Shown piece after piece: positions 2,960 through 52,308 of a stretch of 56,981 nt of DNA (its first letter is position 1; the number at the start of each line of letters is the position of its first letter). The notes below the pieces were generated by a model, which did no database searches, was not told the DNA's origin, and was given only the letters and a program-made list of their open reading frames with translations. Source of the DNA: Eubacteriales bacterium (GTDB lineage Bacteria; Bacillota; Clostridia; Oscillospirales; JAAYXM01); NCBI GenBank assembly GCA_045533555.1, contig JAZSHZ010000209.1:1-56981 (forward strand), read 5' to 3'. The position numbers and the translations under genes were made by a program.

Positions 2960-3511
2960 TTATTTTACGAAATCGAGGATTCTTTGAATCAATACTGCGA
3001 CTTCGGCGCGTGTGGTGTTTGCCGTCGGGTAGATGAGAGCGTTTTTACCGTTTACAAGCTTTGCATTGACAAGTGCTGCTACTGAGTCTTTTGCATAGTC
3101 GGCTACCTTGTCATAATCGCTTGCCTGCGGGACGTCGAGGACGCCGTCCCCTACATTGAGTTTGTTCATTCCCACAAGTGCTCTGTAAACTATAACCATC
3201 ATATCCTGACGGGTGATATTGTTTCTCGGTGCGAATTTGTTCTCACCGATGCCGTTGACAAGACCTGTGTTGCGAGCTATCGCAAGCTCCTTTGCGAAGT
3301 AATCGGAAGATGAAACATCCGCGAAGTTTTCTTCACTCTCAGAAGCTAACTTAAATGCGCGGACAAGAAGTATTGCGAAGTCTGCGCGCGTGATGTTAGC
3401 TGCGGGTGAGAACGTATTCTCGCTTGTTCCCTTGATGATTCCTTCATCTGCAAGAGCATTGATAGCGTCTGCCGCCCAGGCATGATTTCCGAGGTCGATG
3501 AAGCGGACGTT
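2960..3511 (-). repeat. Dispersed SLH-anchor cassette, copy A (3' end of giant A)
   Basis: Encodes the three SLH repeats. It aligns without gaps to the 3' ends of the other three giants. For example, 3350-3511 versus 33874-34035 shows 14 mismatches in 162 nt by my manual count. Confidence 0.85.
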
Positions 3512-6500
3512 TGAATCAACATCCGGCGTTGTCGGTGTTGTCGGAGTTGTTGTTCCCGGTGTCTGCGGGACATCGTCCTTGTCATCTGCACCCGGAGTTG
3601 CCGGGATCGTCGGTTTGTCTGTCGGTGTGGACGGTGCGCTCGGTGGTCCTGCTCCGCCGCCACCGCCGCCGGTGGTTGAACCGTAAACCGTAACTATGAA
3701 GTGAATTGTGGATTCACGTCCGTGAGAGTCTGTTGCAGTCACTGCAAAATGGTTATTTCCGACCTGACTTGATGTTGGCTTCCATACAATCACACCTGTC
3801 GTCTCATCAAGAGTTGCACCACGAGGTATCTTCTCTCCACTGTATGTGACCGTTACGTCCTCAAGCTCGCTTGATGCATTGAGCTTTACAGTTATTGCGC
3901 TTCCCGCGCTTGTTGAAAGACCGTTCGGAACTGTATCAAATACAGGTGCATTATCATCACTTACCGAAAGCGGAATTATCGCTTCCTGACCTGCCGCTAT
4001 TGTATAGACATAGCCAAGTTCAGGCTGATACATATCGACATACTTTCTTATAAGAGTTGTTCTTCCGAGATTGAGAAGGATATTGTCGCCACTTCTCTCT
4101 GCCGATACAATCTTATACGCGCCGTCACGCATTCCCTCTTCGTTGTCGATAATAACAACGCGATTTGCGAGATCTGAAAGCTCTGCATCTGTCAGAGGCT
4201 CTTCTGTTGAAAGCTCAATAACATTTGAAGAAGCAAGCTCCTTCGTGAAATCTATAACTGTTCCAACAATCGCAGGCTTCTCGCCCGTTGCCTCTCCGAT
4301 GATATCACCGTCGAGAACATATTTATATGTATTCACGCCGTTTTCAACAGTATAAACTCCCACAAAACCACGGAAAGCAATTTCTGTATCGCCATCTGTT
4401 ACTGTATAAGTAACGTTATTATTTGTTGCATAGAAGACATAGTCAACTCTTCCGTCAGCAAGCTCTACTCTTACTGCACGGGCAGCATCGTTCTTCTTTT
4501 CCTTGCCGTCCGTTGCTGTCATTGCAAGCTCATCCGCCGACTTTAAGATACGATTTCCCTTATACGGTTCAAGGACCGTTGTGAATACAGTATCAAGCTC
4601 TTCGTTTTTGTTCTCATTTTCAATGAGGACATATTTGAGCTTGTCGATGTTTTTATTTGCAGCAACTCTCGGTGCATAACCATCGGTTATTGCTACATTA
4701 ACATCTGCACCTTCTGCCACGTTTGTTCCGTTGAGCATAGTCATGCGGAGATGGATATTCTTCGAATCCTTGACTGTCTTATTGAAGTCAGTGATTGCAA
4801 AGTCAATCTCAAACTTGTCTTCGGGATTTTCATCACGGTCAACATTTTCAAGCCAGGTAAATCCTATCGGATATTCGGTCTCATAATCCCATGAATTTGC
4901 GGTTTTGGGATCCTGTCCGTATTTTGTATCCTTGCCTGCGTATGTTCCGACATAGTTGCCTGCTTCATCTGCCTGCTTTACTGTTTCTATCCCTTCTGTT
5001 TCAGAGATTTCGTTGCTCTGTGCATGGAAACTGTAGATATGGCTGTTTCCTCCAAGGACTCTGAACAGATCAACATAATATGAATTTTCATCATCCACAT
5101 TGATCATTACAACACTTCTGCGATACGCCTCAGCTTCATCATAGACATAGCTTGTGTCAACATCTATTACCTGAACCTTATCTGCATCATCATAGTGCTT
5201 TACTTTACCGCGGATTTCAGAATTCTCCTCCTGCTTTTCACCGTTGACAACAACCGTGTTGTGTGAAAGAGTATTTCTTACCCACTGAATTCTGTTCGGG
5301 TCATTTCCCGTCTGCTCCGGATAACCGAGATCGGGAAGTATATTGAGGCCGAATGCCGTCATACCAATATTGAGGCTGTCAAGATGAGCGTGGCTGACAC
5401 CATTTGAGCCAAAATACATCCAGACATTTCTTGTTGTTTCACTGCTCGTTGCACTCGTCACATTATCCTCAAATCGGTGACCGTCACGGAGAATGGAGTA
5501 GCCAAATCCCGTCTGAATATCCGAGTCAAGTTCAATCTCGCCGTATTCATCAATAATTGCCTGAATCTCGTTTGCAAGGCTCTCAGGATTCTTTGTATAC
5601 ATATCATACTTGAGGTCTTCAACAGAATTTCCGTTAAGCATATAGAGATACTGTGCGAAAACGGGATCCTTAGTCTGTGTGTAAGCCGTCTTCATATGAC
5701 CTGCATTAGCCCAGTGAGAAATATCTGCGGTGTTTCCGCCGTCTCCTATCTGCGGAGAATAGCTGTTTGCAGCACGGAGCGGCATAAGTGCGAGGAACAT
5801 CTGCTGATATTTCGGATTTTCAGAGAGGTTTTCTTTTTTGTACTTATCATATCCGTTCAAAACATTGTTGACAAGGCTTACACCGCTGAGCCAGAGAAGT
5901 CCGTAGTCAGAAGCTTCGTTGCTATGACCGTCGGCACATATTTTCTCAATGAGAACTTCGTTTATTCCTCCGCCTACGACAGGAACATCTGTTGTCCAGC
6001 CGGGGGCAAAGAGATAATCAAGCCATTCTCCTGTTTCCGGGAAGGAATCAAGAATTACCGCCGCCATAGCCACATTTCGCTGTGACATACCGAAGTTACC
6101 GTGAATCTTTCTGTTGTATACTTCATCAAGGACTCCGCGTATAAAGTTATCTTCGACATTCTGGCGAATCTGCGCTGCTGTCTGCTTTGAATATCTGCTT
6201 GTATTGTTCTTTGCTATATAATCGATAACCTGAGAATCCTCATACATATCATATACCATATCATATGCAGGAACCTCGTTTGTGAGAATTGAGCATTCCC
6301 AGATGCAGCCGAGACGCTTGCCCTGGTTCGAACCGCCATCGGAGTTCCAGACATCATTTCCAAATGCCTTGATATCGTAGTCACGATAGAAATCCGCAAC
6401 TCGGTCAAGGAGGATTGCTGCTACACGTCCGTATTTCTTATCGCCGGTAAAGTAATATGCATAAGCACAGTTTGTGATTGCATTTGTAAGAACACCGCCG

Positions 6501-9500
6501 TTGTCTCCCGCCTTTGTCTGGAATACGCCATAATGCATAAATTCCGCGATATAGAGGTGTCTTTCCACAACGGTTCCGGACAGATATGCCTTGCCGTTTT
6601 CATCATACGGGACATATCCGTAGCCGTCATCAACTCCCCAGGTAGCTGTTGTCTCACCCGGACGGAGCCCCTGACCGCAGTTGATTGTGTCAACGTTTTC
6701 AAGGTTGGAATATAGCTTATTTACAAGATATCCGCCCTCTGCACCGTAGCCGTAATACTCCTTCCATTCCGCTGTTCCTTTAGTTGTCGGAGCAACGCAG
6801 TCACATTCAAGCTCTGCATCACCGTGGTGAATGAGGCTGTGGTGAGCATCAAGGGCATCCTGATATATAAATTCGCCGTATTCATTAAGACCGAGCTTAT
6901 AGAAGCTTTCGAAATCGTTGGACGGGAAATATCTGTCACATTCGGGGCACTGAATCTTCCACGGTCTGGTTATTGAATTATGTACCCACGGATAGTTACC
7001 ATACTTCTCCTGGAGATTCTCTCCACAGTAGCGGCAAGTGTACATATTCGGGTCTTTTTCTGCACCTACGGAGAAGCTTCTCGGAACCTCCTGAGATGCA
7101 ATGAGCGAATAAATCTCATCGAGCTTGTCAACATACTTATCGGCATTTTTTATGTATGTCTCGGCAGAGCTCTTTGCCCAATCATATTTTTTGATATTCT
7201 CTCTTGCAATTTCCTGCTTTTCAGCTGTCATATAGCTTGCTTCAGTCTTTGCCGTAACAACAGGAAGCTCAATGACCTTTGTGCGAATACGTCCGTCAAC
7301 CTTGACTGTTACCTCAAATCGGGCAGTTCCGTCTGCAACAGGCTCAATATAGTTTGCCCATTCACCGTTTTCATCCGGATACTGCTCATATGCTATTTTT
7401 GCAAATTCCGGAGTGAGTGCTGCAGCTGTTACCTCTGCATCCGTAAGATCAATATCGTTGCCGAGATTTGTTTTTGCGGAAACATAAAGCGGATATCTGT
7501 CTGTTGCATCGTCTGTAAGGCGTATTCTCGGGCTTCCGCCGCTTGTCGCCGTTATATCCGTCATTCCCTCGGGAAGAACCTCGACCTCGAAGCTCGTGCT
7601 CTTTGTTTCTCCGTTAAAGGTCGCAGTTGCTGTGATAGTCGTCTTTCCTACAGCGAGAGTTGTTATTGCGTTGCCGGATACGGTTGCGACGCTTTCATCG
7701 GAAGAAGAATATGTTATCGGTGCGTTTTCTTCACTGATAACTCTGCCGCTTTGAAGCTTTACTTCACCTTCAAGAAGCGCAATATCTCCAAGGAACACTT
7801 CATCTGCAACGGTCTTTGCAGTGACCGAAGCAATTGGGTCATTCACTACTTTTATCTTGACCGTTTCGGTTGTTTCCGTACCGCCAACGGTTACGGAAAG
7901 CGAAATCTCAGCCTCGCCTTCAGCCTTTCCGGTAAGCGTGAAGGGAAGCTTTCCGGTTTTGCCCATAGTGTAGGCCGCAAATCCCGAAACTCCAAGAACA
8001 TCGGAGGTCATCGAGCTTACTGATGCTGAATTTGCAGTATCTGCGCTTCCGTCGTTGTTTATACCGAAGTGAAGAGCCGAGCCGTCTGTCATGGCAGCAT
8101 AAACTGCACCCTGCACCGTTTCACCGACTGCTATCTCTTCGGGAAGCTCATATGCAATCTTTTCATAAACCGTTCCCGATTCTGCAACCGGGTCAAAGCT
8201 TATTGTTCCTACAACAAGAATTGCACCTGCGGAATAATGCTTTTCACGGGCTCTGAAGGATATCTTGTGTTCACCCTTCTCGAGATGCAATGTGTTAAGA
8301 GACTGCTCACCGTTATCGAACATAGCCGTAACCGACGGGTCATAGCAGTTGTAGTCACCTGCATACATATCATCAACGAATACAGAGAACTTTCCTCCCA
8401 AATTCCATACACCGCCATGAACCTTTAAATTGAAATCGTGTTCATAGGGAATGTCAACAAGAATCGTGATTGCATTGTTTGTGATTTTCGGAGTTGCCGG
8501 CCACATACCGCCGCGCAACCACATATATGCCGCCTTAAAGCCTGTGTTTGAGCAAGCGCCGAGACGCCACATTGTTGTGTCTGATTCTTCGCGCACCAGC
8601 GTATACCCCGGTGTTTTTGTCGGAGCAGGGCGATTACCCGAGCCGTCAGCACCATTATATTCACTCTGCGAGAAATCTACCGAAATAGTCGGGAAGGTTT
8701 CATAAACATTGAGTGTAAGCTTTCCTGATATTTTTGCACCGTCTTCGTTTTCAGCCTCTGCTGTTATGACGGTCATACCTGCCGCAATGGTTGCAACTTC
8801 GCCTGTTGCCTTATCAACCGTTGCTGCAGCAATGTTTGAGCTCTTATATGATACTGTATAACCGCTCATATCAGCAGCTATTCCGTCATTCATCATACCC
8901 TCAACGGTAATCTGCGCGGTATCTCCGGGAAGAAGAACGGATTTATCTGCCGAAAGTGTGATGCTTTCAAGCACAGGAGCAGCTTCAATTTCAATATCAA
9001 TACCTCCGATGACCTGCTTGCCTTCTGAAATTGCAGTCACCGTTATCTTTGCAGTACCCTTAGATACGCCTGTCACAACACCCGTTGTCTTATCAACGGT
9101 TGCGATGCTTTCATCGTAGCTTGCGAACGAAATTTCGGTTTCCTCTGTCCACTCGCTTTCGAGATTGCTTATAAGCTCATAAGAAACCTGCGCAGTTCTC
9201 GTTGCAGGAATGGTTTCTTTATCAACGAAAACCTTGACGGTCTGAAGCTCCGGAACCGGATATATCTTAATCGGAACCGTTTCTGTGTACGGTTCATTTC
9301 CGTCGGTGTTGACGGTAATTTTAATGTTTGTATCTCCGACTGTCTTCGCGTTTACCGTGAATGCAATATCGTTCTCGCTTTCAGGCTGAGCATACTTCAA
9401 ATCCGAAACGGTTGCGATGTTTTCATCTTCGATAATAACCGAAACGGTATTCTTCACATCTTCCGAAGCATTATCAGAAAGCCCGAAGCCGCGGTATGAA

Positions 9501-11665
9501 CCATCAGACATCTTGACCTTCGCCGCAACACTTTCAGCTCTTCCGACCGTGAGCTTTTCGCTTCCCGAAACTTCAACCTTTTCAACTTCGGGCTTGCTTT
9601 CAACAGGAGTGAATTCCATCCATATCGGAACAAAGTTCGGTGTTGCATAATGCTTTACTCTTGTGCGGAAGGAGATTTCGACATCACCTGCCGGTATATA
9701 AAGAGTATTGAGCTTTTTCTTTTCTCCGACTGAGAGAGCAGCACCCGTTTCGAAGAAATTATAGTCACCTGCATACTCGCCATTTACATAGACTGCAAAA
9801 TCGGAGCCTGCAGACCACTTATAGCCAAGCATTTCAATTGCATAGTAGCCCGCCGCGGAGAAATTCTTCCTGATGGTAAACATTGCTTCCTGCGAATCAG
9901 GCCTTGTCTGCCACGGGTCACCCGCAATCTGAATCTGCTGATACGGAAGAGCCATACCGTTTGCAAGTGTAACCGAGCTCTTGCGCGAGATACCCGTCGT
10001 CGTCTTTCCCGCAACAATATCAAATCCATATGTATTCCATGTTGAAGGAGCTGTCTTATCCTTGCCTATCGTGTGTGTGCCGTTGAGGTCAAGGCGCGTA
10101 TACGCGGGCTTCGTCTCATCAACGGGAGTGAGAGTGATTCCCGAAAGAAGGAACATCTGATATGTCGTCGAGCTTCTGTACCAGCTCTTCGCATTTTTCG
10201 CGATGGCATCCTTGTCTATATCAAAGAAGAGATAATACTCGCCCGCCTTCGGAACGTCAATATAACCGATATCCGATATATACGGAGCATCTGCGCTCGT
10301 TGCGAGGTTATTGACATCATAATAGCCAACTTCATCGGCAACGGTTACGAAATCACCAAACAGTGCGCCATTTGTTACGCCACCGCTTGAAGCTTTGTTT
10401 GTTATTGCAAAGTTTGCGTTTCCAAAATAAACCTTTGCGACGGTACCTTTATCGAAAGAACCCTTAACCGCACCGTTTTTTTGTTCTCCGAGCGAAACAA
10501 CACCCGCGACCACCGGATGCGACTTTGTGAATGCATTTGATGCCGAGAGCCTGAATCTGCCGCCATAAGGCACATTGAGCTTTATCGCAACCCATGGATG
10601 TGCCGCATAGTCTGCGCTCTCATAAGAATTCCCCGCGCTGTCGGTTGCAATTTTAAGCTGCGTTGCATAGCCTGCATCCTTGATTGAAGGACCATTATCC
10701 ATAGGCATACGTCCGACTATTTCATAGCCTTCCGTTTTTGCCGGGTCGAGCATCGGAGCAACGCCGGAAATCTTTTCCTTATAGCTTACATACATAAGCT
10801 CGAGGTTATCAATTTCCGAGCCTGCCGTTGCCGCAGTGGATGCCTGACGGGAAGCATAGTTTGCTATTGCATCCTCGTGGTATGCACCCGGAGTAATATT
10901 ATACGAAAGGGTCGGCTTTTCGCTTATAGCTTGCTCCGAAAGAGAGAAGGAGCGAAGCTTGAGCGTTATGAAATATCTGTTTGCTGTTGTGTATATATCC
11001 TTTTTGATATTTGCATTTGCACCATTCAGAAGAAGAACGAGATAATATTTCTTCGAAGCATCAACCGAAACCTTAGAAAAGCTTACTGTTTTAAGCTCAC
11101 CATTTCCGTATGCATCGAATGAGCCTATTTTAGTTGTTGCCGCCTTTGCAGCTACGTTGTTTCTGATAGCCTTGTTTCCCCATGCAATCGTCGGACACTG
11201 CCACGTGCTTGCAGGAGCTTCAAAGAAAAGAACATCATATTTTCCGCCCGAATTCTCGGTGAGAAAGCTTATATTCGGGACAAAGCTTCCCGTTTTGCTT
11301 GGCTGAATCTCGAAGACAACCGTTCTGACAGTTGCCTGCGTGCCGTCAAAATCCGCGGAAGTTCCGTCAGCTAAATTAATTGTCCACAGGAAATTGTTGA
11401 TATCGGCGGAAACAGTTGATCCCGACGCCTGGTTAACAAATCCCCATTTGCTCGAAACTCCTGTTTTTGTTGAATCAAGAGCGGCATTTGTTCCAAGCGT
11501 TGTGCTGTTATACATCGCCGTCAATGCCGAATATCCGTGCGACGGAGCCGTGAACAGATATTCGTCAACGATGGTGTTCTCTGCCGCAGATGCAAAGAGA
11601 GTCATTGTCGGAAGCATCGAAATGACCATTGCAAGGGCGAGAACAATCGATAAAATTCTCTTCAT
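2960..11665 (-). CDS. Giant SLH-anchored surface protein A (2,901 aa): signal peptide, four CBM-like modules, Big_2 Ig repeats, Cys4 ribbon plus heparinase II/III-like core, He_PIG Ig domain, 3x SLH
   Basis: Uninterrupted 8.7-kb ORF. SD AAAGGAGGA (11672-11680). Signal peptide MKRILSIVLALAMVISMLPTMTLFASA. Big_2-like ...IATVD..TG.VT....GTA.ITVTA... repeats. Core motifs YYFTGDKKYGRVAAILLDRVADF and SHAHLDSLNIGMTAFGLNILPDLGYPE...LSHNTVVVNG. He_PIG-like IPRGATLDETTGVIVWKPTSSQVGNNHFAVTATD. C-terminal FIDLGNHAWAADAINALADEGIIKG (SLH). Confidence 0.95.
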   Translation of the reverse strand: MKRILSIVLALAMVISMLPTMTLFASAAENTIVDEYLFTAPSHGYSALTAMYNSTTLGTNAALDSTKTGVSSKWGFVNQASGSTVSADINNFLWTINLADGTSADFDGTQATVRTVVFEIQPSKTGSFVPNISFLTENSGGKYDVLFFEAPASTWQCPTIAWGNKAIRNNVAAKAATTKIGSFDAYGNGELKTVSFSKVSVDASKKYYLVLLLNGANANIKKDIYTTANRYFITLKLRSFSLSEQAISEKPTLSYNITPGAYHEDAIANYASRQASTAATAGSEIDNLELMYVSYKEKISGVAPMLDPAKTEGYEIVGRMPMDNGPSIKDAGYATQLKIATDSAGNSYESADYAAHPWVAIKLNVPYGGRFRLSASNAFTKSHPVVAGVVSLGEQKNGAVKGSFDKGTVAKVYFGNANFAITNKASSGGVTNGALFGDFVTVADEVGYYDVNNLATSADAPYISDIGYIDVPKAGEYYLFFDIDKDAIAKNAKSWYRSSTTYQMFLLSGITLTPVDETKPAYTRLDLNGTHTIGKDKTAPSTWNTYGFDIVAGKTTTGISRKSSVTLANGMALPYQQIQIAGDPWQTRPDSQEAMFTIRKNFSAAGYYAIEMLGYKWSAGSDFAVYVNGEYAGDYNFFETGAALSVGEKKKLNTLYIPAGDVEISFRTRVKHYATPNFVPIWMEFTPVESKPEVEKVEVSGSEKLTVGRAESVAAKVKMSDGSYRGFGLSDNASEDVKNTVSVIIEDENIATVSDLKYAQPESENDIAFTVNAKTVGDTNIKITVNTDGNEPYTETVPIKIYPVPELQTVKVFVDKETIPATRTAQVSYELISNLESEWTEETEISFASYDESIATVDKTTGVVTGVSKGTAKITVTAISEGKQVIGGIDIEIEAAPVLESITLSADKSVLLPGDTAQITVEGMMNDGIAADMSGYTVSYKSSNIAAATVDKATGEVATIAAGMTVITAEAENEDGAKISGKLTLNVYETFPTISVDFSQSEYNGADGSGNRPAPTKTPGYTLVREESDTTMWRLGACSNTGFKAAYMWLRGGMWPATPKITNNAITILVDIPYEHDFNLKVHGGVWNLGGKFSVFVDDMYAGDYNCYDPSVTAMFDNGEQSLNTLHLEKGEHKISFRAREKHYSAGAILVVGTISFDPVAESGTVYEKIAYELPEEIAVGETVQGAVYAAMTDGSALHFGINNDGSADTANSASVSSMTSDVLGVSGFAAYTMGKTGKLPFTLTGKAEGEAEISLSVTVGGTETTETVKIKVVNDPIASVTAKTVADEVFLGDIALLEGEVKLQSGRVISEENAPITYSSSDESVATVSGNAITTLAVGKTTITATATFNGETKSTSFEVEVLPEGMTDITATSGGSPRIRLTDDATDRYPLYVSAKTNLGNDIDLTDAEVTAAALTPEFAKIAYEQYPDENGEWANYIEPVADGTARFEVTVKVDGRIRTKVIELPVVTAKTEASYMTAEKQEIARENIKKYDWAKSSAETYIKNADKYVDKLDEIYSLIASQEVPRSFSVGAEKDPNMYTCRYCGENLQEKYGNYPWVHNSITRPWKIQCPECDRYFPSNDFESFYKLGLNEYGEFIYQDALDAHHSLIHHGDAELECDCVAPTTKGTAEWKEYYGYGAEGGYLVNKLYSNLENVDTINCGQGLRPGETTATWGVDDGYGYVPYDENGKAYLSGTVVERHLYIAEFMHYGVFQTKAGDNGGVLTNAITNCAYAYYFTGDKKYGRVAAILLDRVADFYRDYDIKAFGNDVWNSDGGSNQGKRLGCIWECSILTNEVPAYDMVYDMYEDSQVIDYIAKNNTSRYSKQTAAQIRQNVEDNFIRGVLDEVYNRKIHGNFGMSQRNVAMAAVILDSFPETGEWLDYLFAPGWTTDVPVVGGGINEVLIEKICADGHSNEASDYGLLWLSGVSLVNNVLNGYDKYKKENLSENPKYQQMFLALMPLRAANSYSPQIGDGGNTADISHWANAGHMKTAYTQTKDPVFAQYLYMLNGNSVEDLKYDMYTKNPESLANEIQAIIDEYGEIELDSDIQTGFGYSILRDGHRFEDNVTSATSSETTRNVWMYFGSNGVSHAHLDSLNIGMTAFGLNILPDLGYPEQTGNDPNRIQWVRNTLSHNTVVVNGEKQEENSEIRGKVKHYDDADKVQVIDVDTSYVYDEAEAYRRSVVMINVDDENSYYVDLFRVLGGNSHIYSFHAQSNEISETEGIETVKQADEAGNYVGTYAGKDTKYGQDPKTANSWDYETEYPIGFTWLENVDRDENPEDKFEIDFAITDFNKTVKDSKNIHLRMTMLNGTNVAEGADVNVAITDGYAPRVAANKNIDKLKYVLIENENKNEELDTVFTTVLEPYKGNRILKSADELAMTATDGKEKKNDAARAVRVELADGRVDYVFYATNNNVTYTVTDGDTEIAFRGFVGVYTVENGVNTYKYVLDGDIIGEATGEKPAIVGTVIDFTKELASSNVIELSTEEPLTDAELSDLANRVVIIDNEEGMRDGAYKIVSAERSGDNILLNLGRTTLIRKYVDMYQPELGYVYTIAAGQEAIIPLSVSDDNAPVFDTVPNGLSTSAGSAITVKLNASSELEDVTVTYSGEKIPRGATLDETTGVIVWKPTSSQVGNNHFAVTATDSHGRESTIHFIVTVYGSTTGGGGGGAGPPSAPSTPTDKPTIPATPGADDKDDVPQTPGTTTPTTPTTPDVDSNVRFIDLGNHAWAADAINALADEGIIKGTSENTFSPAANITRADFAILLVRAFKLASESEENFADVSSSDYFAKELAIARNTGLVNGIGENKFAPRNNITRQDMMVIVYRALVGMNKLNVGDGVLDVPQASDYDKVADYAKDSVAALVNAKLVNGKNALIYPTANTTRAEVAVLIQRILDFVK
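4995..7240 (-). other. Heparinase II/III-like (polysaccharide-lyase fold) core of giant A, with Cys4 insert at 6938-7036
   Basis: Runs from ASYMTAEKQEIARENIKKYDWAK through the TGD.KYG toroid motif to FGYSILRDG...VSHAHLDSLNIG...PDLGYPE...RIQWVRNTLSHNTVVVNG...FRVLGGNSHIYSFHAQ. The H.H.D / PDLGYP / SHNT pattern matches my memory of the Hepar_II_III family. Confidence 0.7.
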
Positions 11666-15230: not shown

Positions 15231-15276
15231 ATGCTCACCACATCGCTTAATATAATGGTAACAATTATACACGATA

Positions 15277-18333: not shown

Positions 18334-19060
18334 CTACTTTACGAAATCGAGGATTCGCTGAATCAGAACTGCGGCTTTCGCGCGTACTGTGATTGCCTGC
18401 GGGCCAATAAGACCGTTCTTGCCGTTTACAAGCTTTGCATTGACAAGTGCCGATACTGCTTCTTTTGCATAGTCTGCGACTTGGTCAAAGTCGGGAGCTT
18501 GCGGGACGTCGAGGACGCCGTCCCCTACATTGATTTTGTTCATTCCCACAAGTGCTCTGTAGACGATTACCATCATATCCTGACGGGTGATGTTGCTCTT
18601 CGGTGCGAATTTATTCTCACCGATGCCGTTGACAACACCTGTGTTGCGGGCTACCGCAAGTTCTTTTGCAAAGTAGTCGGAAGCGGAAACATCCGCGAAG
18701 TTTTCTTCGCTCTCGGATGCTAACTTAAATTCGCGGACGAGGAGGATTGCGAAGTCTGCGCGTGTTATGTTAGCCGCGGGCGAGAATGTATTCTCGCTCG
18801 TTCCCTTTATGATTCCTTCATCTGCAAGAGCATTGATAGCGTCAGCCGCCCAATCGTGAGCACCGAGGTCAATAAAGCGGACGTTTCCGGCTCCCTCTCC
18901 GAGGGAGCCGTCGGCATCGCCGACTGAGGGAGTTTTATCTACATTGTCTGTGGAGGACATTGAATCATCCTTATCCTCCGGCTTTGTTGCGGGGATGGTC
19001 GGTGTGCTTGTTCCCGGTGTCGAGGGTGCGCCGGAGCTTCCGCCGCCACCGCCTGTGGTT
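18334..19060 (-). repeat. Dispersed SLH-anchor plus linker cassette, copy B
   Basis: The 3' end encoding SLH x3 is near-identical at nucleotide level to copies A, C and D. The linker part (tccggctccctctccgagggagc.gtcggcatcgccgactgagggagttttatc) is shared with C and D but not A. Confidence 0.85.
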
Positions 19061-22000
19061 GCACCGTAGACATCGACATAGAAATGTATTGTTTCCTGTC
19101 TTCCATATTCATCAATTGCAGTAACCGCGAAATGGTTCTTTCCTATCTGCGAGCTTGTCGGCTTCCAGACGATTTTGCCTGTTTCCGCATCGATGCTTGC
19201 TCCGCGCGGCAACATCGCCGCTTCATAGGTTATCGCGGGTGCATTTTCCTCTATCGGGCTTCTTGCTTTGATATCGACTACTATCTGACTTCCTGCCGTT
19301 GTCGAAAGCTTCTCACCTACTGCATCGAATATCGGCTTGAAGTTTTCCGCTTCCGTGAGCGGAATTCTTGCAGGCTGATTCTTTTCTATGATATAGATAT
19401 ATCCCTTATCCATATCATATTCATCCTTATATCTGCGAACCGTCGTGACATCACCGACATTGAGTCTGATATCGTTTCCGCTGCGCTCGGCGCTCTTTAT
19501 CTGCCATGCACCGCTTCGGTTTTCTACTCCGTTGTCAACAAAGACATATTTTCCGGGAAGATTTGCTAAAACATCATCGGAAACTTCGCTATCCGGAGTT
19601 ATCGAAATAAAGTTCTCAAACGCAAGCTCTTCCGTGAACGAGGAAACAGTTCCCTCAATTGATGCCGTTTTTCCCGTTTCCTCTCCGAGAATATCACCGT
19701 CGTGGAGATATTTATAGGTATTTATGCCGTTTGCAACCGTCCATACACCGAGGAAGCCGCGGAACTTGAGTGTGCTTCTGTCATCAAGCGTTATCTCATA
19801 TGTTACCTTATTGTTCGTTGACCAGAGAACATAATCGACTCTGCCGTTCTCGTGTTCAACACGTACTGCGCGGTGGTCATCATCCGCACCTTCTGCAACA
19901 TCGCCTGCGACGCGCATCTCAATTTCATCGGAATTCTTAAGATAACGGTTATGGCGGTAAGGCTCAAGAACCGTTGTGAATGTCGTGTCGAGATTCTTTC
20001 CTTCGTTCTTTATAAGGACATACTTGAATTTGTCAATCGCCTTATTTGCTGCCTTATCCGGCGGATAACCGTCCGCAATTGAGATCTCCGCATCTGCACC
20101 GTTCTTTACGTTGCTGTCATTGAGCACTGTCATATGGAGGTGGAGACCCGTTCCGTCCATCAGGCTCTTTCTGAAATCCTTTATTGCAAAATCAATTTCA
20201 ACGCGATTTTCGGGATCCGTGTCGCGGTCAACATTCTTAAGCCAGGTATATCCGCGCGGGAATATCGTTTCATATGTCCACTGGTTCGGAGAATTCGGGT
20301 CATTGCCGTATTCCGCTTCGAGGACGACTTCGTTCTCACCGAGAACCGCATCCTCTGTATATCTGCGGACAGCGCCCGTTTCCGTATCCTTGATATACTT
20401 TGCATTTCTGCCTGCGTATGTTCCCTTGTAGTTTCCGTTTTCATCAAGCTGTGAGCCCGAAATATAATTTCCGTTTTCATCCTCAATGAGGGTGAAATCA
20501 AGGCCGACAGTCTCTGCAATTTCGTTTGATGCGGCATGGAATGAATAGAGCTGCTTATTTCCGCCGAGAACTCGGAAGAAGTCTATCACATATGAATTCT
20601 CGTCATCAACGTGAACCATGACAACGCTTCTGCGATATTCGCTTACGCTGTCATTGACGTAAGGTGCGGAAACATCCATTACCTGAACATCCTCGCCATA
20701 GTCAAAGTGGAGTGATTCGCCTCGGGGCTCATCGGGAGCACTCGTTTCCTTGTCATCAACGATGACAACGTTATGCGAAATCGATCTTCCGACCCACTGG
20801 AGACGGTTCGGCGTGTAGCTCGTTTCCTCCGGATATCCGAGATCGGGGAGGAGTTCGAGCCCGAATGCAGTCATTCCGAGTCCGAGATTATCGTTATGCG
20901 CATGGCCATCACTTGTTCCGAAATACATCCATGCATTTCTTGTCGTATCGATCGAGTTCTGATTGTTTGTGCCCTTATATTCGCCGCCATCGCGAAGAAT
21001 TGCATAGCCGAAGTTTGTCATTGCCTCGGATGTGCGGACGAGAGTTCCGTGATTGTCAATAACCGTCTGAACTTCTTTTGCAAGGCGCTCCGGATCACGA
21101 GTATAGATATTATAGTGAAGTCCCGTGCTCTTATTGCCGTTTATGAGATAGAGCATCTGCGCGAAAACGGGGTCACCAAGTCTTGAGAAGCCCTGAATGA
21201 GCTGGTTCTGCTCATACCACTGACTCGAGGTCATCGTCGAGAACGTATCGCCGATATTTACCGAGTGGTTACCCGTTACAAGCGGAAGGTTACTGTAGAA
21301 CATTTTGACGAATTTCGGGTTGTTATAGAGGCTTGCTGCCGAATAGCCGTCATAACCGTCGAGAACCTCCTGAACGCTGATGAGCGTCGTGTGCCAGTCC
21401 GCATTATATTCCGAACCTTCGTTACCCTGACCGTCCGCGTCAACCTCGTCTACAAGACGTGTGCTGATACCGCCACCGTCGCTTCTGCCATTTCTACCCC
21501 AGCCCGGAGCCATAAGATAGTCAAGCCAGTATTTCGTGTCAGGCATTGTGTCGAGGACAACTGCCGCAAGCGCATTCGTTCTCTGCGGATAACCGAAGTT
21601 ACCTGCGATCTTGCAATCGGGAAGCGCATTGAGTACGCCGCGGAGGATTCCGTCTTCGACATTCGTTCTTATCTGCGAAGCCGTTTTCTTCGAATGGCGC
21701 ATCTTGATCGTTTCCGCTTTTTTGCTGATATAATTTACGACAAACGGATCATCATAGCAATCGAAGACCATATCATATGCTTCGATATATTTATTCATCT
21801 GAGTTCCTTCCCAGATGTTGCCGAGGATTTTTCCCTTTCCTGTTCCGCCGTCGGAATGGGTTACATTGTTGCCCCATATCGAGCGGTCAAAATCGGGATA
21901 GAAGTCTGCCATACGGTCAAGAAGTATTGCCGCGGCCTGACCGTATTTCTTCTCGCCGGTGAAGAAATATGCGTTTGCAAGATAGGAGATCGCATTCTGT

Positions 22001-25000
22001 ATCGCGCCGCCGCTTCCGCCGTCTCCGCGCCAGAGACCATAGTGGCTGTATTCCGCGATATATGTGTGTCTTTCTGCGCGGTTGTCATTCTTATAGTATG
22101 TTCCGTCGAGCTTTCTCGGAACATAACCGTGGCCGTCATCGACGCCCCACGTTTCCGTCGTCTCGCCCTCGCGGAGACCCTGATTTGCATTGAGAGTCTT
22201 GACATCCTCAAGATTATCATAGAGCTTATTTACGAGATATCCGTTCTTATCACCGTAGCCATAGTAGGGATACCATTCCGTTGTCCATTCGTTTTCCGGC
22301 GCGACGCATTCGCATTCAGCATTCGCATCGCCGTGGTGAACGAGCGCATGGTGCTTTGTAAGCGCGCGCATTCTGTCAAACTCGCCGTATTCGTTGAGTC
22401 CGAGCTTATAGAACGAGCCGAAATCATTTGTCGGGAAGTTTCTTCCGCAATCGGGGCAGATTATCTTCCATTCATTCACGAGCGAGTTATGCTTCCACGG
22501 ATATGTTCCGTATTTCGCAGTAATCTTGACTCCGCAATAGCGGCAATATCCATTATAAGGATCACTCTTTGCTCCGACGCCCGAGCTTCGCGGAACGCCC
22601 TCGGAGTGGATCATATTATAGAGCTGATCAAGTCTTTCGACATAGCGATCGGCTTTCTTGACGTTTGATTCAACTTCTTTTTTCGCCCACGAATATGTTG
22701 AATAATTTTCCCTTGCAGCTTCCGCTTTTTCCGCTGTCATATAGGATGAGCGGCTCTTGCCCCATACTACGGGAAGAGTTACATCACGCGAAATCGTTCT
22801 TCCGCTGTGGGTTGCGGTTATGCGGAAGATCGCATCACCTTCGGCAATCGGGAGTATTTCATTATCACCGATTATCTGCGCCTTATCGGGCGTGAGGCAT
22901 TCCGTCGTGAAGGTAAGCTCATCGGGGTCAAATTCGTTTCCGAGGTTCGTGAACGCTCTGACATAGAGCGGCACCGTGTCATTTTCCTTATCCGTCAGGC
23001 GGATATATTTGCTTCCGCCCGCGGTTGCGGCGATCTCGTTTATTCCTTCGGGAATAACCTCAAGATCAATATGGGATTCGACACACTCGCTGCTTCCGTT
23101 GATATGAGCTTTGGCGGTTATGCGGACATTTCCCGCCTTCTTTGCCTTGATATTCATTCCGTCAATCTCAGCAACTTCCTCATTTCCGGAGGAGAGCTCC
23201 GTTATGACCGCAGGGGTGTTGAACTCAGTTCCGTCGGAAAGCTTCGGTATCGCGGTTATCTTAACGGTGTCACCCTCAAATATCTCCTCCTGCGAGACCT
23301 TCGTCTCAACGGAGGTAAGCGCAAGCTTCGGAAGCGGATAGAATCCGAAGTTGTTTATATTGACATAGAGGTGATTCTTATAGTTTACACTGCCGTTTGA
23401 AATATTGAAGTTTTCAGGTCCCTGAAGAGCCTCATTGAGGCCGTTACATTGCCAGATGAGATAATACTCACCCGCAGTATCAACCGTTATATTCTCAAAG
23501 CTTTCCGTCTTCGTCTCGCGCACGGTGCTGTACATATCGTGCTTTGCGATGAGATATTCCTCCTTGTCCGGAAGAGCTTTGAGCATCTTTGCGACATTTG
23601 CCGCCGTTGTGAGATCGGGGTATGAGCTTGCATCGACAACGGATTTCGGGATGAGATACGTGTCAAAGATACAAAGTGTATTTTTCGTATCATAGGTTAT
23701 TGCCGGTGTGAACGTTCCTGTTCTGTTTATCTTGATGAGCGCCGCAACGGTAATGTCCTGACGCGCGGTATATGTTCCGCCCTCAAATGTTCCGTTTTCA
23801 GAATCGACGGTTGCACCCATATATCTCGCGGCACGGTAACCATAGGCATGCCACGTGAGTGAATGCGGGAGAGAATTTGAGCCCGACGAAGAGCTCGTTA
23901 CCTTCTCGCTTCCCGTTACGGAGAGCCAATACTGAAGGTTTGCACCGCTGACGATCTGCCACGGATCGGTGTTATATTCCGCATATCCGAGAGTCGGAAG
24001 CTTTGCCTTCACTATTTCCTCGTTCAAATCATAGCTGCTTGCGCTGAAGTTATAGACGAGGCCATCAAGCTCGCGCCTTACCTCCACGGGGACGGAAAGC
24101 ACTATCGGATCGCCGTTTTCGTTTGTTGCGGATGCGGAAACGGTTGTCTTACCGACAGCGACCGCCGCCATATTTCCGTTTTCATCAACAGTTACGACGG
24201 AATCGTCTCCGCTCTGATAGCTTACTTCATAATTTGCGATATCGCCCGCTTTTCCGTTTGACATAATTGCGGAAATGCCGATCGCTGCGGAGCTGTTGTT
24301 TTCATCGTTTTCAAAGAAAACGAAATTCGGCTTTGCCGCCTTGAAGCTTTCAAGATAGGGCTTGCCTTCAACGATAATATCGACCGAGTCGGATACATTG
24401 CTTCCCTTGACGGTTGCCGTTATAGTCGCATTACCTTTTGCGATTGCGGTTACAACGCCATCCTTATCGACGGTTGCGATATTATCATCGGAGGATTTAT
24501 ATTCAATTTCATATTCACCTGTCGGGATATCTCCGTTTGAGAGCCACATTTCGACAGATGAAGTTGCGCTTCCTCCCTCGGAGAGCGTCGTTTCGCTGAG
24601 CGTAAGCTCAAGCTTTCCGATTTCGGGGCGCGCGATCGCACCCTTATGGTGGAGGTCGAATGAATAGAGGTTGACATATATTGCAGGTCCGTTTGCATTT
24701 TCATATTTTGCCGCAAGCTTTTCATTGAGACCGTTTGAAAAGAAGAAGAGGACATATTCGCCTGCCTTCTCAACAACATAGTCATCAAGGAAGCTCGTCT
24801 TTGTTCCTGCAGTCTCGCCGTACATATCAACGTTGCCAATAAAATAATTCGTGATTCCCGGGCGAACCGTTGATGAAAGCGCCGAATTCGCAAACTTGAG
24901 GCGGTTTCTGTAGTTTCCGATAAGCTCGCTCCACGGAACGAGATAGACCTCATAAATGCAGAGGTCGGGGCGTGCATGATATGTAACCGTCGGGATGAAT

Positions 25001-25431
25001 GTTCCCGTCTCGTCAATCTTGACTCTTATTGCAGCTGCACTGTCATGCTTGACTGCACCTGATGCCCATGCGCGCGTTCCGTAAGCATACCATGTGAGTG
25101 CATTCGGCATTTTTGTCGCCGCGCTGACCGCATCGTGTGTGAGTGCGGGATATCCCGACTGTGCACGGTAATGGCCGTCAACAACCCACGGATCGGTATT
25201 TACACTTGCCCATGTGAGATTATCCGATACATCGGGAGTTGCCGATGTATCGCCATAGGTCTTGAGCGTATCCATATCGATCTCGGCAGTTGCGCCATAT
25301 CCTTTTGCGCCGAAATTGAAGTGGACACCGTCTCCCGTCTCTGCCGCAAAGGACATCGTCGGAAGAAGCGAAAGCATCATCGCAAGCGCAAGAATAAGAC
25401 TCAGGCTTCTTTTGAAAGATAATTTCTTCAT
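18334..25431 (-). CDS. Giant SLH-anchored surface protein B (~2,365 aa): signal peptide, two CBM-like modules, Big_2 repeats, Cys4 ribbon plus heparinase II/III-like core, He_PIG, 3x SLH
   Basis: Uninterrupted 7.1-kb ORF, open to 25449. I prefer MKKLSFKRSLSLILALAMMLSLLPTMSFAA (ATG 25429-25431) because GGAAAGGA lies 8 nt upstream. Core motifs YFFTGEKKYGQAAAILLDRMADF and DGHAHNDNLGLGMTAFGLELLPDLGYPE...ISHNVVIVDD. SLH tail FIDLGAHDWAADAINALADEGIIKG. Confidence 0.95.
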   Translation of the reverse strand: MKKLSFKRSLSLILALAMMLSLLPTMSFAAETGDGVHFNFGAKGYGATAEIDMDTLKTYGDTSATPDVSDNLTWASVNTDPWVVDGHYRAQSGYPALTHDAVSAATKMPNALTWYAYGTRAWASGAVKHDSAAAIRVKIDETGTFIPTVTYHARPDLCIYEVYLVPWSELIGNYRNRLKFANSALSSTVRPGITNYFIGNVDMYGETAGTKTSFLDDYVVEKAGEYVLFFFSNGLNEKLAAKYENANGPAIYVNLYSFDLHHKGAIARPEIGKLELTLSETTLSEGGSATSSVEMWLSNGDIPTGEYEIEYKSSDDNIATVDKDGVVTAIAKGNATITATVKGSNVSDSVDIIVEGKPYLESFKAAKPNFVFFENDENNSSAAIGISAIMSNGKAGDIANYEVSYQSGDDSVVTVDENGNMAAVAVGKTTVSASATNENGDPIVLSVPVEVRRELDGLVYNFSASSYDLNEEIVKAKLPTLGYAEYNTDPWQIVSGANLQYWLSVTGSEKVTSSSSGSNSLPHSLTWHAYGYRAARYMGATVDSENGTFEGGTYTARQDITVAALIKINRTGTFTPAITYDTKNTLCIFDTYLIPKSVVDASSYPDLTTAANVAKMLKALPDKEEYLIAKHDMYSTVRETKTESFENITVDTAGEYYLIWQCNGLNEALQGPENFNISNGSVNYKNHLYVNINNFGFYPLPKLALTSVETKVSQEEIFEGDTVKITAIPKLSDGTEFNTPAVITELSSGNEEVAEIDGMNIKAKKAGNVRITAKAHINGSSECVESHIDLEVIPEGINEIAATAGGSKYIRLTDKENDTVPLYVRAFTNLGNEFDPDELTFTTECLTPDKAQIIGDNEILPIAEGDAIFRITATHSGRTISRDVTLPVVWGKSRSSYMTAEKAEAARENYSTYSWAKKEVESNVKKADRYVERLDQLYNMIHSEGVPRSSGVGAKSDPYNGYCRYCGVKITAKYGTYPWKHNSLVNEWKIICPDCGRNFPTNDFGSFYKLGLNEYGEFDRMRALTKHHALVHHGDANAECECVAPENEWTTEWYPYYGYGDKNGYLVNKLYDNLEDVKTLNANQGLREGETTETWGVDDGHGYVPRKLDGTYYKNDNRAERHTYIAEYSHYGLWRGDGGSGGAIQNAISYLANAYFFTGEKKYGQAAAILLDRMADFYPDFDRSIWGNNVTHSDGGTGKGKILGNIWEGTQMNKYIEAYDMVFDCYDDPFVVNYISKKAETIKMRHSKKTASQIRTNVEDGILRGVLNALPDCKIAGNFGYPQRTNALAAVVLDTMPDTKYWLDYLMAPGWGRNGRSDGGGISTRLVDEVDADGQGNEGSEYNADWHTTLISVQEVLDGYDGYSAASLYNNPKFVKMFYSNLPLVTGNHSVNIGDTFSTMTSSQWYEQNQLIQGFSRLGDPVFAQMLYLINGNKSTGLHYNIYTRDPERLAKEVQTVIDNHGTLVRTSEAMTNFGYAILRDGGEYKGTNNQNSIDTTRNAWMYFGTSDGHAHNDNLGLGMTAFGLELLPDLGYPEETSYTPNRLQWVGRSISHNVVIVDDKETSAPDEPRGESLHFDYGEDVQVMDVSAPYVNDSVSEYRRSVVMVHVDDENSYVIDFFRVLGGNKQLYSFHAASNEIAETVGLDFTLIEDENGNYISGSQLDENGNYKGTYAGRNAKYIKDTETGAVRRYTEDAVLGENEVVLEAEYGNDPNSPNQWTYETIFPRGYTWLKNVDRDTDPENRVEIDFAIKDFRKSLMDGTGLHLHMTVLNDSNVKNGADAEISIADGYPPDKAANKAIDKFKYVLIKNEGKNLDTTFTTVLEPYRHNRYLKNSDEIEMRVAGDVAEGADDDHRAVRVEHENGRVDYVLWSTNNKVTYEITLDDRSTLKFRGFLGVWTVANGINTYKYLHDGDILGEETGKTASIEGTVSSFTEELAFENFISITPDSEVSDDVLANLPGKYVFVDNGVENRSGAWQIKSAERSGNDIRLNVGDVTTVRRYKDEYDMDKGYIYIIEKNQPARIPLTEAENFKPIFDAVGEKLSTTAGSQIVVDIKARSPIEENAPAITYEAAMLPRGASIDAETGKIVWKPTSSQIGKNHFAVTAIDEYGRQETIHFYVDVYGATTGGGGGSSGAPSTPGTSTPTIPATKPEDKDDSMSSTDNVDKTPSVGDADGSLGEGAGNVRFIDLGAHDWAADAINALADEGIIKGTSENTFSPAANITRADFAILLVREFKLASESEENFADVSASDYFAKELAVARNTGVVNGIGENKFAPKSNITRQDMMVIVYRALVGMNKINVGDGVLDVPQAPDFDQVADYAKEAVSALVNAKLVNGKNGLIGPQAITVRAKAAVLIQRILDFVK
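20503..22752 (-). other. Heparinase II/III-like core of giant B, with Cys4 insert at 22447-22545
   Basis: Runs from SSYMTAEKAEAARENYSTYSWAK to FFRVLGGNKQLYSFHAASNEI. H.H motif at 20896-20904. Confidence 0.7.
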
Positions 25432-25451
25432 TCGTTTCATCCTTTCCATTC

Positions 25452-29153: not shown

Positions 29154-29194
29154 AAAAAAAGGAACGATGGGTTTTATTTCCTGTCGTTCCTTTT
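29154..29194. terminator. Stem-loop terminator shared by convergent GH20 and AraC genes
   Basis: A-run, then stem ggaacga (29161-29167) / tcgttcc (29184-29190) extended by A:T pairs, then ttttg. The AraC stop codon (29174-29176) lies in the 16-nt loop. Confidence 0.55.
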
Positions 29195-30157: not shown

Positions 30158-30216
30158 CTCGCTCACCTCCGATTGCATTATATCATTGTCGAAATGATTT
30201 TTCAACACAAAAAACG

Positions 30217-33483: not shown

Positions 33484-34220
33484 TTATTTTATGAAATCAA
33501 GAATCCTCTGAATCAGAACCGCGACTTCGGCGCGAGTTGTGTATGCCGTCGGGTCGATGAGACCGTTTTTGCCGTTTACGAGCTTTGCATTGACGAGAGC
33601 GGAAACTGCGTCTTTTGCATAGTCTGCTACCTTGTCATAATCGCTTGCCTGCGGGACGTCGAGGACGCCGTCCCCTACATTGATTTTTTCCATTCCCGCA
33701 AGTGCTCTGTAAACGATTACCATCATATCCTGACGTGTAATGTTGTTTCTCGGTGCGAACTTGTTCTCACCGATGCCGTTGACAAGGCCCTTGTTGGTGA
33801 CAACTGCAAGCTCTTTTGCGAAGTAGTCGGAAGAGGAAACATCCGCGAAGTTTTCTTCGCTCTCGGAAGCTAACTTGAATGCGCGGACAAGAAGTATTGC
33901 GAAGTCTGCGCGCGTTATGTTAGCTGCGGGTGAGAATGTGTTCTCGCTTGCTCTCTTTATGATTCCTTCATCTGCAAGAGCATTGATAGCGTCAGCCGCC
34001 CAATCGTGAGCACCGAGGTCGATGAAGCGGACGTTTTCGGCTCCCTCTCCGAGGGAGCTGTCGGCATCGCCGACTGAGGGAGTTTTATCCCCTGCATTGT
34101 CTGTGGAGGACGAAGTGTTGTCCTTCTCATCGTCCTTATCACTCGGTGTTGCGGGGATAGTCGGTGTTGTCGTGCCGGAGGATGTTCCTCCGCCACCGCC
34201 GCCTGCGCCACCCGTGGTTT
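33484..34220 (-). repeat. Dispersed SLH-anchor plus linker cassette, copy C
   Basis: See copy A for the counted alignment. The linker sequence is shared with copies B and D. Confidence 0.85.
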
Positions 34221-40518: not shown

Positions 40519-41250
40519 TTATCTTATATATTCAAGAATCCGATGCAGAAGCACCGCCACCTCGGCGCGCGTTGTGTTTGCCGTCGGATCGATGAGACCG
40601 TTTTTACCGCTTATCAGCTTTGCATTGATAAGGGCCGCGACTGCGTCTTTTGCATAGTCTGCTACCTTGTCATAATCGCTTGCCTGAGGCACGTAGAGTA
40701 CGCGATCCCCTACATTGATTTTTTCCATTCCCGCAAGTGCTCTGTAAACGATCACCATCATATCCTGACGGGTGATGTTGTTTCTCGGTGCAAATTTGTT
40801 CTCACCGATGCCGTTGACAAGGCCCGTGTTTCTTGCAACTGCAAGCTCTTTTGCGAAGTAGTCGGAAGAGGAAACATCCGCGAAGTTTTCTTCGCGCTCG
40901 GAAGCTAACTTGAATGCGCGGACAAGGAGTATTGCGAAGTCTGCGCGCGTGATGTTAGCTGCGGGTGAGAACGTGTTCTCACTTGTTCCCTTTATGATTC
41001 CTCCGTCTGCAAGGGTGTTGATAGCGTCAGCCGCCCAAGCATGGTTTCCAAGGTCGATGAAGCGGGTGTTTCCGGCTCCCTCTCCGAGGGAGCTGTCGGC
41101 ATCGCCGACTGAGGGAGTTTTATCCCCTACATTGTCTGTAGAGGACGAAGTATTGTCCTTATCCTCCGGCTTTGTTGCGGGGATAGTCGGTGCGGTTGTT
41201 CCCGGTGTGGACGGCACACTTGCTCCGCCACCACCCCCGCCGGCTGTGGA
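40519..41250 (-). repeat. Dispersed SLH-anchor plus linker cassette, copy D
   Basis: Near-identical to copies B and C through the SLH repeats and linker. Same orientation as all other copies. Confidence 0.85.
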
Positions 41251-50376: not shown

Positions 50377-50400
50377 TTTCTTTTCCTCCATAAACTCATT

Positions 50401-52221: not shown

Positions 52222-52308
52222 TTTTACCTCCAAAAAACAATACGCCGATGTTATGTTATCATACAGTTTAATTCTAATAAATATGAAGAAGTTTATCAAT
52301 GAACAATA

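Follow-up and report, generated by a model that had tools for sequence, protein, structure and literature searches.

A four-cysteine element at the start of an insertion subdomain in giant lyase-like proteins of an Eubacteriales bacterium

What is the role of four strictly conserved cysteines in a protein that leaves the cell? The question is raised by contig JAZSHZ010000209.1 of an Eubacteriales bacterium (assembly GCA_045533555.1), whose 56,981 nucleotides constitute the window analyzed here and encode four giant exported proteins (A to D), each with an enzyme core that resembles polysaccharide lyases (PL) of families PL17 and PL40. Near the start of each core lie two CxxC pairs (knuckles) separated by a loop, referred to below as the Cys4 element. 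A first-pass annotation made from the sequence alone had proposed three options for this element: a structural Zn site, a pair of disulfides, or a loop-presenting specificity element. The first of them is favored here, as the four Cys probably form a structural tetrathiolate metal site of the zinc-ribbon/rubredoxin-knuckle type, with Zn2+ as the most probable metal.

Conservation and exchange of the four cysteines

The element follows a common pattern in A to D, C-R-Y-C-G-x(24/27)-C-P-x-C and then FP[ST]NDF, and its first Cys is found 67 residues past the core start motif in all four proteins. The motif, the spacing of 25 or 28 residues between the knuckles and the coordinates noted in the first-pass annotation were reproduced residue for residue on the minus strand, with exact spans from the first to the fourth Cys (Table 1). 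In an alignment of A to D, 34 columns hold any Cys and only four of the 34 have it in all four paralogues, these being the columns of the element; the observation is confirmed as far beyond chance. The four Cys show zero entropy in 49/49 aligned Cys4 rows and are invariant down to 35–40% sequence identity, within exported proteins that are depleted in Cys. The FP[ST]NDF motif is almost as constant (0.2 bits), and none of the 71 aligned homologues, the Cys-less ones included, deviates at P107, P114, N116 or F118.

The loop between the knuckles has been the basis of a different explanation, in which the knuckles are mere anchors and the variable loop is displayed to determine specificity, differently in each paralogue. 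Paralogues have loops of 20–31 residues, those of A and B being three residues shorter than those of C and D and different in sequence; the loop entropy reaches 2.2 bits, slightly more than the 1.87 of the core on average, and the massive paralogy of the family suggests specificity diversification. However, the loop keeps a strongly conserved skeleton (Y88, G89, Y91, W93, D96, P97 and P101-W102-K103), it is no more variable than the residues before the first knuckle (2.3 bits), and far larger differences between paralogues occur elsewhere, namely in sub-insertions of 20–125 residues between FPSNDF and WGVDDG and in the N-terminal regions of ~1000 amino acids (aa). Such a loop could also coexist with a Zn clamp and need not compete with it. 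With a conserved skeleton and an entropy only slightly above the mean, a hypervariable specificity loop seems unlikely.

The element is not special to the four exported giants. A search with the A core gave 349 matches, and the best 120 of them were classified together with the four giants (124 proteins). All four Cys are present in 90 of the 124, including a variant of the first knuckle (CPHxDC), and in 27 others the four positions are occupied by Ser, Thr/Ser, Asp and Ser; hybrid tetrads (part Cys, part polar) were not found among the 124 classified proteins. The Cys-less forms keep the length of the segment, the PWK and FP[ST]NDF motifs and all other motifs. A genome scan detected at least 494 loci, of which the best 80 were kept; these 80, from Oscillospiraceae/Clostridia, all have the four Cys and mostly encode proteins of 2000–2500 aa, with a signal peptide wherever the 5' end is complete. 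Finally, a query limited to the insertion subdomain described below was compared with 1.84 billion cluster representatives (50% identity clusters, E<=1e-3) and gave 588 matches, with the four Cys in 141 of the 142 new top ones; the closest cluster representatives have a median length of ~2400 aa. Cys4 is a near-universal character of a family with at least 588 cluster representatives.

The carriers are not all exported. About half of those in the first set (~50 proteins) lack a signal peptide and start with the ~1000-aa enzyme core itself. One of them, P0024 of Paenibacillus eucommiae, starts 53 nucleotides after a cluster for an ATP-binding cassette (ABC) importer with a substrate-binding protein and two permeases, and a position behind ABC importer genes is typical of an intracellular oligosaccharide-processing enzyme. 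The first-pass annotation had considered the element unusual because of export; the giants are indeed exported, but with so many carriers without a signal peptide this has to be softened, and the site was probably inherited from, or is shared with, cytoplasmic forms.

These cytoplasmic carriers bear directly on the possibility that two disulfide bonds staple the insertion in exported, wall-anchored proteins. A to D are exported, and strictly conserved Cys that occur in even number in secreted proteins classically point to disulfides; nevertheless, about half of the carriers in the first set, P0024 among them, would reside in the reducing cytoplasm, so that disulfides are not a general explanation. 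Moreover, the hosts of the giants are anaerobic gut Oscillospiraceae/Clostridia, and for the folding of exported proteins Firmicutes generally do not depend on oxidation (PMC2823432). CxxC pairs of the CPxCG pattern at predicted hairpin turns would also correspond to knuckle geometry and not to the usual disulfide pattern. Taken together, these points make the disulfide pair quite unlikely.

A neighbor-joining tree from which the Cys segment was excluded placed the Cys-less proteins in one nearly monophyletic Bacillales clade (source names Paenibacillus, Numidum, Melghirimyces and Marinithermofilum) nested within Cys4 forms, with P0032, P0053, P0067, P0059 and P0103 as its closest Cys4 relatives. 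This nesting indicates that Cys4 is ancestral and that the full exchange took place once, perhaps twice. A split between the two states according to export was considered and rejected, since both are found with and without signal peptides; it is lineage and not export that explains the split. Aerobic Firmicutes exclude Cys from exported as well as cytoplasmic proteins (PMC2823432), and the exchange of the tetrad in Bacillales fits this exclusion.

The same distribution could be read in terms of oxygen. The element might be a rubredoxin-like iron site, or a redox/oxygen switch in which oxidation of the thiols would release the bound ion, the insertion would unfold and activity would be restricted to anoxic conditions. 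The arrangement C-x-x-C-G ... C-P-x-C-G with ~25–28 spacer residues resembles that of rubredoxin (29), the exported Cys4 forms occur in lineages of strict anaerobes and the aerobic Bacillales clade lacks all four Cys. On the other hand, Pfam gave no rubredoxin match even at E<=10, the Cys-less clade keeps the other motifs, from which redox chemistry does not appear to be required for function, the Cys4 form is also present in the cytoplasm of an aerobic Paenibacillus, and the general exclusion of Cys in aerobic Firmicutes accounts for the taxonomic pattern without a switch (PMC2823432). We therefore consider an iron site or a switch very unlikely. Rubredoxin itself (PF00301) was rejected as a relative: besides the missing Pfam match, the similarity is limited to the knuckles, and a BLASTP comparison with the C. 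pasteurianum rubredoxin aligned only the 7–10 residues of the knuckles. The view of the conserved Cys as a neutral leftover, without any part in structure or function, deserves almost no credit, since they are invariant at 35–40% identity in Cys-depleted exported proteins and their loss hits all four together.

A probable structural metal site and its limits

Both knuckles of the element follow the C-[PR]-x-C-G pattern, which is typical of rubredoxin-type zinc knuckles. When the isolated segments (63–66 aa) were compared with Pfam, every sub-threshold match was to a Zn-binding family (DZR, Zn_ribbon_3, PyrI_C, zf_UBZ, Zn_Ribbon_TF and others), and an N-terminal profile searched against the PDB found only Zn fingers and ribbons aligned on the Cys (TAX1BP1 UBZ, E 0.007; RPA12). 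In AlphaFold2 (AF2) models of the whole core and of the isolated subdomain, DSSP assigns short strands or bridges that flank the knuckles (core 76/83 and 104–105/112–113; predicted local distance difference test, pLDDT, 87–98). The strict conservation and the concerted polar replacement, together with the carriers in the cytoplasm and the anaerobic nature of the hosts, are best explained by a structural Zn(Cys)4 clamp. Among the three options of the first-pass annotation, the structural Zn site is hence the best supported, by the knuckle motifs, the weak matches to Zn families, the conservation and the concerted exchange. We infer metal binding, the identity of the metal, its clamping role and its proximity to the active site.

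In such a clamp, each CxxC would be located at the turn of a predicted beta-hairpin and the metal would hold the two hairpins together, forming the first part of a compact subdomain of 120–145 residues. As the second knuckle stands three residues before the invariant FP[ST]NDF, the clamp would position this motif together with the subdomain, fixing the conformation of both the motif and the whole insertion, and the insertion in turn would contribute to the substrate pocket. The site does not appear to be catalytic, since a clade with all four ligands swapped keeps every other motif; there, the Ser/Thr(Ser)/Asp/Ser tetrad presumably forms a hydrogen-bond network in place of the metal. The site would be ancestral in the family and common to the cytoplasmic ~1000-aa forms and the exported giants.

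Several points weigh against this reading. The curated thresholds of the zinc-ribbon families in Pfam are not reached (PyrI_C, 21.5 bits for a gathering score of 23.4; DZR, PF12773, 16.7–18.4 for 27.3; Zn_ribbon_3, PF13248, 12.6–19.2 for 27), and a zinc-ribbon match for the insertion subdomain was not found by Foldseek. The concerted loss of the Cys probably represents one or two events, which is statistically weaker than the raw counts of 90 and 27 proteins. Tetrathiolate Zn sites are uncommon on the outer side of Gram-positive cells, and the connection from the clamp through FP[ST]NDF to the active site would be drawn only from adjacency and conservation along the sequence.

The concerted exchange has a precedent in the LID of adenylate kinase, which holds either a Cys4-Zn site or a His-Ser-Asp-Thr hydrogen-bond network (PMC11526920). 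In both cases the Cys4 of an inserted subdomain is replaced as a full tetrad by polar residues, with unchanged length and without hybrids; unlike the LID, the family considered here belongs to another fold and enzyme class, and the exchange seems to have happened once or twice. The element also resembles zinc ribbons (DZR, Zn_ribbon_3, the TFIIB ribbon and the PyrI C-terminal domain of aspartate carbamoyltransferase, ATCase) in its two CxxC knuckles ~25 residues apart, but here they constitute the opening segment of a larger subdomain of 120–145 aa instead of an independent domain, and they are found in an often-exported carbohydrate-active enzyme instead of a nucleic-acid-binding or redox protein.

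The insertion subdomain within a PL17/PL40-like enzyme

The first-pass annotation had taken the Cys4 stretch of ~33–36 residues for an insert. It does lie within an insertion relative to PL17, as found by hhalign, but the insertion is a subdomain of 120–145 aa of which the element is the first third. For this comparison, 70 full-length PL17 genes from metagenome loci were aligned with the family alignment (hhalign probability 99.7%, E 4e-25, identity 18%). The intact family profile left the N-terminal helices out of the alignment; with core residues 63–208 removed, the alignment became colinear from residue 5 to the end (score 221 versus 218 intact), placing 'eglPRSY' on 'VPvP' and 'WGVDDGfGY' on 'kDpGGGYTHE' of PL17. 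Colinearity only without core 63–208 indicates that the family carries the insertion in one loop of the toroid. D212 and G216 of the WGVDDGYGY motif that closes it are invariant.

The isolated insertion was predicted by AF2 at pLDDT 95 and a predicted template modeling (TM) score (pTM) of 0.90. Foldseek detected no PDB match for it (best E 1.4, TM 0.17), from which the insertion appears to be absent from every solved lyase of the heparinase II/III fold; judging from the model, it would be either a new fold or too irregular for Foldseek. Conservation within the core is highest here, with a mean column entropy of 1.63 bits compared to 1.90 in the toroid and 1.88 in the sandwich, which suggests that the insertion may help to build the substrate pocket. 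A second metal-like motif is found inside the insertion in A and B (Table 1) and in many Oscillospiraceae paralogues, HH-x3-[FVI]H...EC-x-[C/H], the final ligand being Cys or His; it is missing in C, D and the 85%-identical A homologue L001, and may be an optional His/Cys metal site.

The rest of the core is a recognizable enzyme fold. The AF2 model of the A core (1033 aa, 71-sequence alignment) reached a pLDDT of 92.6 and a pTM of 0.91, and together with Foldseek it describes an (alpha/alpha)6 toroid followed by an antiparallel beta-sandwich. The only segment with pLDDT <50 is core 600–607 (~5441–5464, minus strand), a short loop that opens the beta-sandwich and whose length also varies in homologues. 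Foldseek placed PL17 Alg17c first (E 5e-25, target TM 0.69) and PL40 Uly1040 second (E 2e-24), followed by PL15, PL12, PL21, PL39, PL35, PL33 and DS-epimerase 1, all with a probability of 1.00; the query TM of only ~0.49 is due to the family core being ~300 residues larger. When the PDB was searched by sequence, using the core or family profiles, the matches fell only on the C-terminal sandwich of PL17/PL40 (profile matches AlgL17, 1.4e-13, then Uly1040, 3.2e-13) and, weakly, on Zn fingers at the knuckles, and there was no N-terminal alignment to PDB lyases; the best phmmer match in the PDB (E 6e-4) covers part of the sandwich.

In PL17, catalysis involves an Asn-His neutralizer, the acid Tyr Y258 and the base Tyr Y450 (PMC8600288). 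The acid Tyr (PYYQRY) aligns with Y454 of the family, which is Tyr in 70/71 sequences. The PL17-type interdomain His/His/Asp metal site (GHGH / D / SHNT) is also kept (H627 in 70/71, D/E645 in 71/71 and H668 in 71/71), these residues aligning to the PL17 motifs GHGH, D-Y-G and A-H-N-T. In the neutralizer region N390 and Q395 are invariant, with His394 at the aligned position in 41/71, and opposite the base Tyr the alignment has a gap, with Y648 as a possible substitute. At position 394, A carries Ser, B Pro, C His and D Ala, and the D core (41821–44712) has Gln at H627, which is His in 70/71, and Ala at the near-invariant W458. From their sequences, the paralogues A to D may differ in catalytic competence or mechanism, and the family members are plausibly active lyase-like enzymes without being members of PL17. 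Membership of CAZy PL17 was rejected, given an identity of 18% and colinearity only after removal of the ~145-aa insertion.

PL17 (Alg17c 4ok4/4nei and AlyA3 7bjt; PMC8600288) is nonetheless the closest solved fold; the His/His/Asp site is common to both, and Y454 aligns with the acid Tyr. It differs in having no counterpart of core 63–208 and so lacks the Cys4 element, FPSNDF and the insertion subdomain, whereas the family shows no clear match to the Asn-His neutralizer and the base Tyr and has the larger core. PL40 Uly1040 (9vtk; PMC12915356) is an equally good fold match with the same two-domain architecture and a metal near the cleft. Foldseek with the isolated insertion found no equivalent in Uly1040, and the text of the Uly1040 paper contains no occurrence of zinc, cysteine or disulfide and reports no Cys-based site (PMC12915356). 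Neither the PDB searches nor the literature searches revealed a characterized or solved member of the family, and the literature searches gave no report of a Cys4 site in lyases of the heparinase II/III fold. The absence of the insert from solved or characterized lyases of this fold, in line with the first-pass annotation, is thus borne out by the PDB, Foldseek and literature searches.

Genomic setting and meaning of the family

The four giants share 42–53% pairwise identity over their C-terminal ~1600 residues and differ in their N-terminal regions. Signal-peptide-like N-termini (e.g., MKRILSIVLALAMVISMLPTMTLFASA) and two to three C-terminal surface-layer homology (SLH) repeats in each (Pfam SLH, 88–100 bits) agree with the first-pass description of A to D as exported and wall-anchored. 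Pfam also detects Big_2 and He_PIG domains, and Hepar_II_III_C (PF07940) at 38.6 bits in A, 34.9 in B, 31.8 in C and 26.0 in D, all above the gathering score of 24.

Table 1. Coordinates of the giant genes and of the elements within their cores (window positions; aa, residue numbers of each protein).
Feature	Position	Strand	Description
Gene A	2960..11665	(-)	2901-aa exported SLH-anchored giant; PL17/PL40-like core aa ~1468-2500
Gene B	18334..25449	(-)	2371 aa; 53% identity with A over the C-terminal ~1650 aa
Gene C	33484..40497	(-)	2337-aa paralogue
Gene D	40519..47553	(-)	2344-aa paralogue; directly upstream of C, same strand
Cys4 element, A	6938..7036	(-)	C1544-R-Y-C1547-G ... C1573-P-E-C1576; 25 residues between knuckles; translation YTCRYCGENLQEKYGNYPWVHNSITRPWKIQCPECDRYFPSNDFE
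Cys4 element, B	22447..22545	(-)	C969/C972/C998/C1001; 25 residues between knuckles; translation GYCRYCGVKITAKYGTYPWKHNSLVNEWKIICPDCGRNFPTNDFG
Cys4 element, C	37330..37437	(-)	C1021/C1024/C1053/C1056; 28 residues between knuckles; translation MICRYCGVDVSTFPNGGNGRAFTWNIIARPWKVQCPNCKRNFPSNDFE
Cys4 element, D	44377..44484	(-)	C1024/C1027/C1056/C1059; 28 residues between knuckles; translation YYCRYCGVDIATKYGADGAYAYDINFIMRPWKIQCPDCKRLFPSNDFG
FPSNDF motif, A	6911..6928	(-)	Three residues past the second knuckle
FPSNDF equivalent, B	22420-22437	(-)	
FPSNDF equivalent, C	37303-37320	(-)	
FPSNDF equivalent, D	44350-44367	(-)	
Insertion subdomain, A	6641..7075	(-)	aa 1531-1675, 145 aa; between 'VPRS' and 'WGVDDGYGY'
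Insertion subdomain, B	22150..22584	(-)	aa 956-1100, 145 aa
Insertion subdomain, C	37117..37476	(-)	aa 1008-1127, 120 aa
Insertion subdomain, D	44161..44523	(-)	aa 1011-1131, 121 aa
WGVDDGYGY motif, A	6614..6640	(-)	Closes the insertion; aligns with the PL17 'D-x-G-G-G-Y-T-H-E' loop
WGVDDGYGY equivalent, B	22123-22149	(-)	
WGVDDGYGY equivalent, C	37090-37116	(-)	
WGVDDGYGY equivalent, D	44134-44160	(-)	
Second metal-like motif, A	6797..6844	(-)	aa 1608-1623, HHSLIHHGDAELECDC, inside the insertion
Second metal-like motif, B	22306-22353	(-)	aa 1033-1048, HHALVHHGDANAECEC

The Cys content of the open reading frames (ORFs) in the window splits clearly by predicted location. It amounts to 0.48–0.64% in the giants and 0.3–0.8% in six of the seven ORFs with a signal peptide, a small SLH protein having 1.2%, compared to 1.7–2.7% in the cytoplasmic-looking ORFs (the glycoside hydrolases GH127 and GH20, two AraC regulators, a PHP protein and a 693-aa ORF); the exported proteins of this organism are thus ~4-fold poorer in Cys. 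Each giant or giant pair is directly preceded, on the same strand, by one exported Flg_new/Flg_new_2 (Listeria-Bacteroides repeat) protein of 585–924 aa (11724–14306, 25452–27209 and 47617–50391, all on the minus strand), which suggests a repeated two-gene module consisting of a Flg_new protein and then a giant lyase-like protein. Further neighbors (50401–52299 (-), 27380–29152 (+), 14349–15272 (-) and 29174–30208 (-)) encode a GH127-like beta-L-arabinofuranosidase, a GH20 hexosaminidase and two AraC-type regulators; with such neighbors, the substrate context of the giants may be plant arabinogalactan/extensin or host glycans.

The closest relative of A among the loci listed (85% identity) comes from a goat-rectum Oscillospiraceae metagenome-assembled genome (MAG), RGIG3057. 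Paralogue expansion is extreme in such organisms: single gut MAGs contribute 12–17 of the best 80 loci, nearly all of them signal-peptide-bearing giants of 2000–2500 aa (examples within L001–L080 are on the JAFSEA01 contigs of Oscillospiraceae RGIG3057, on SVLF01 of SIG480 and on JAFSIZ01 of RGIG3186), and the four genes of the window look like part of an expansion of this kind. In Paenibacillus eucommiae the locus around P0024 (L081; JAGGLB010000017.1, 83527–94625) has a sensor kinase and an ABC sugar importer ahead of P0024 and a Laminin_G_3 protein behind it; this compact utilization locus of a cultured organism could serve substrate discovery.

A structural zinc knuckle pair, as proposed for the Cys4 site, is in itself ordinary biochemistry; what is new is the setting of the site, which opens an undescribed insertion subdomain. 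A much bolder proposal, which we regard as improbable, is that the Cys4-clamped insertion is a new substrate-pocket or lid subdomain that defines an unrecognized PL family distantly related to PL17/PL40 and expanded to at least 12 SLH giants per genome in gut Oscillospiraceae, with an oxidation-labile tetrathiolate site and hence surface enzymes active only under anoxia. If true, an oxidation-labile site would explain why aerobic Bacillales swapped the tetrad to Ser/Thr/Asp/Ser. The exchange provides a further natural example of the trade between zinc and hydrogen bonds seen in adenylate kinase. For expression and substrate assignment, a Cys4 metal site would have the practical consequence that zinc should be supplied and that EDTA and oxidants should be avoided, and the naturally Cys-free Bacillales orthologues are candidates for easier expression targets. 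Such work would concern a large, uncharacterized and gut-expanded family, which is hugely amplified in the Oscillospiraceae of the ruminant and human gut.

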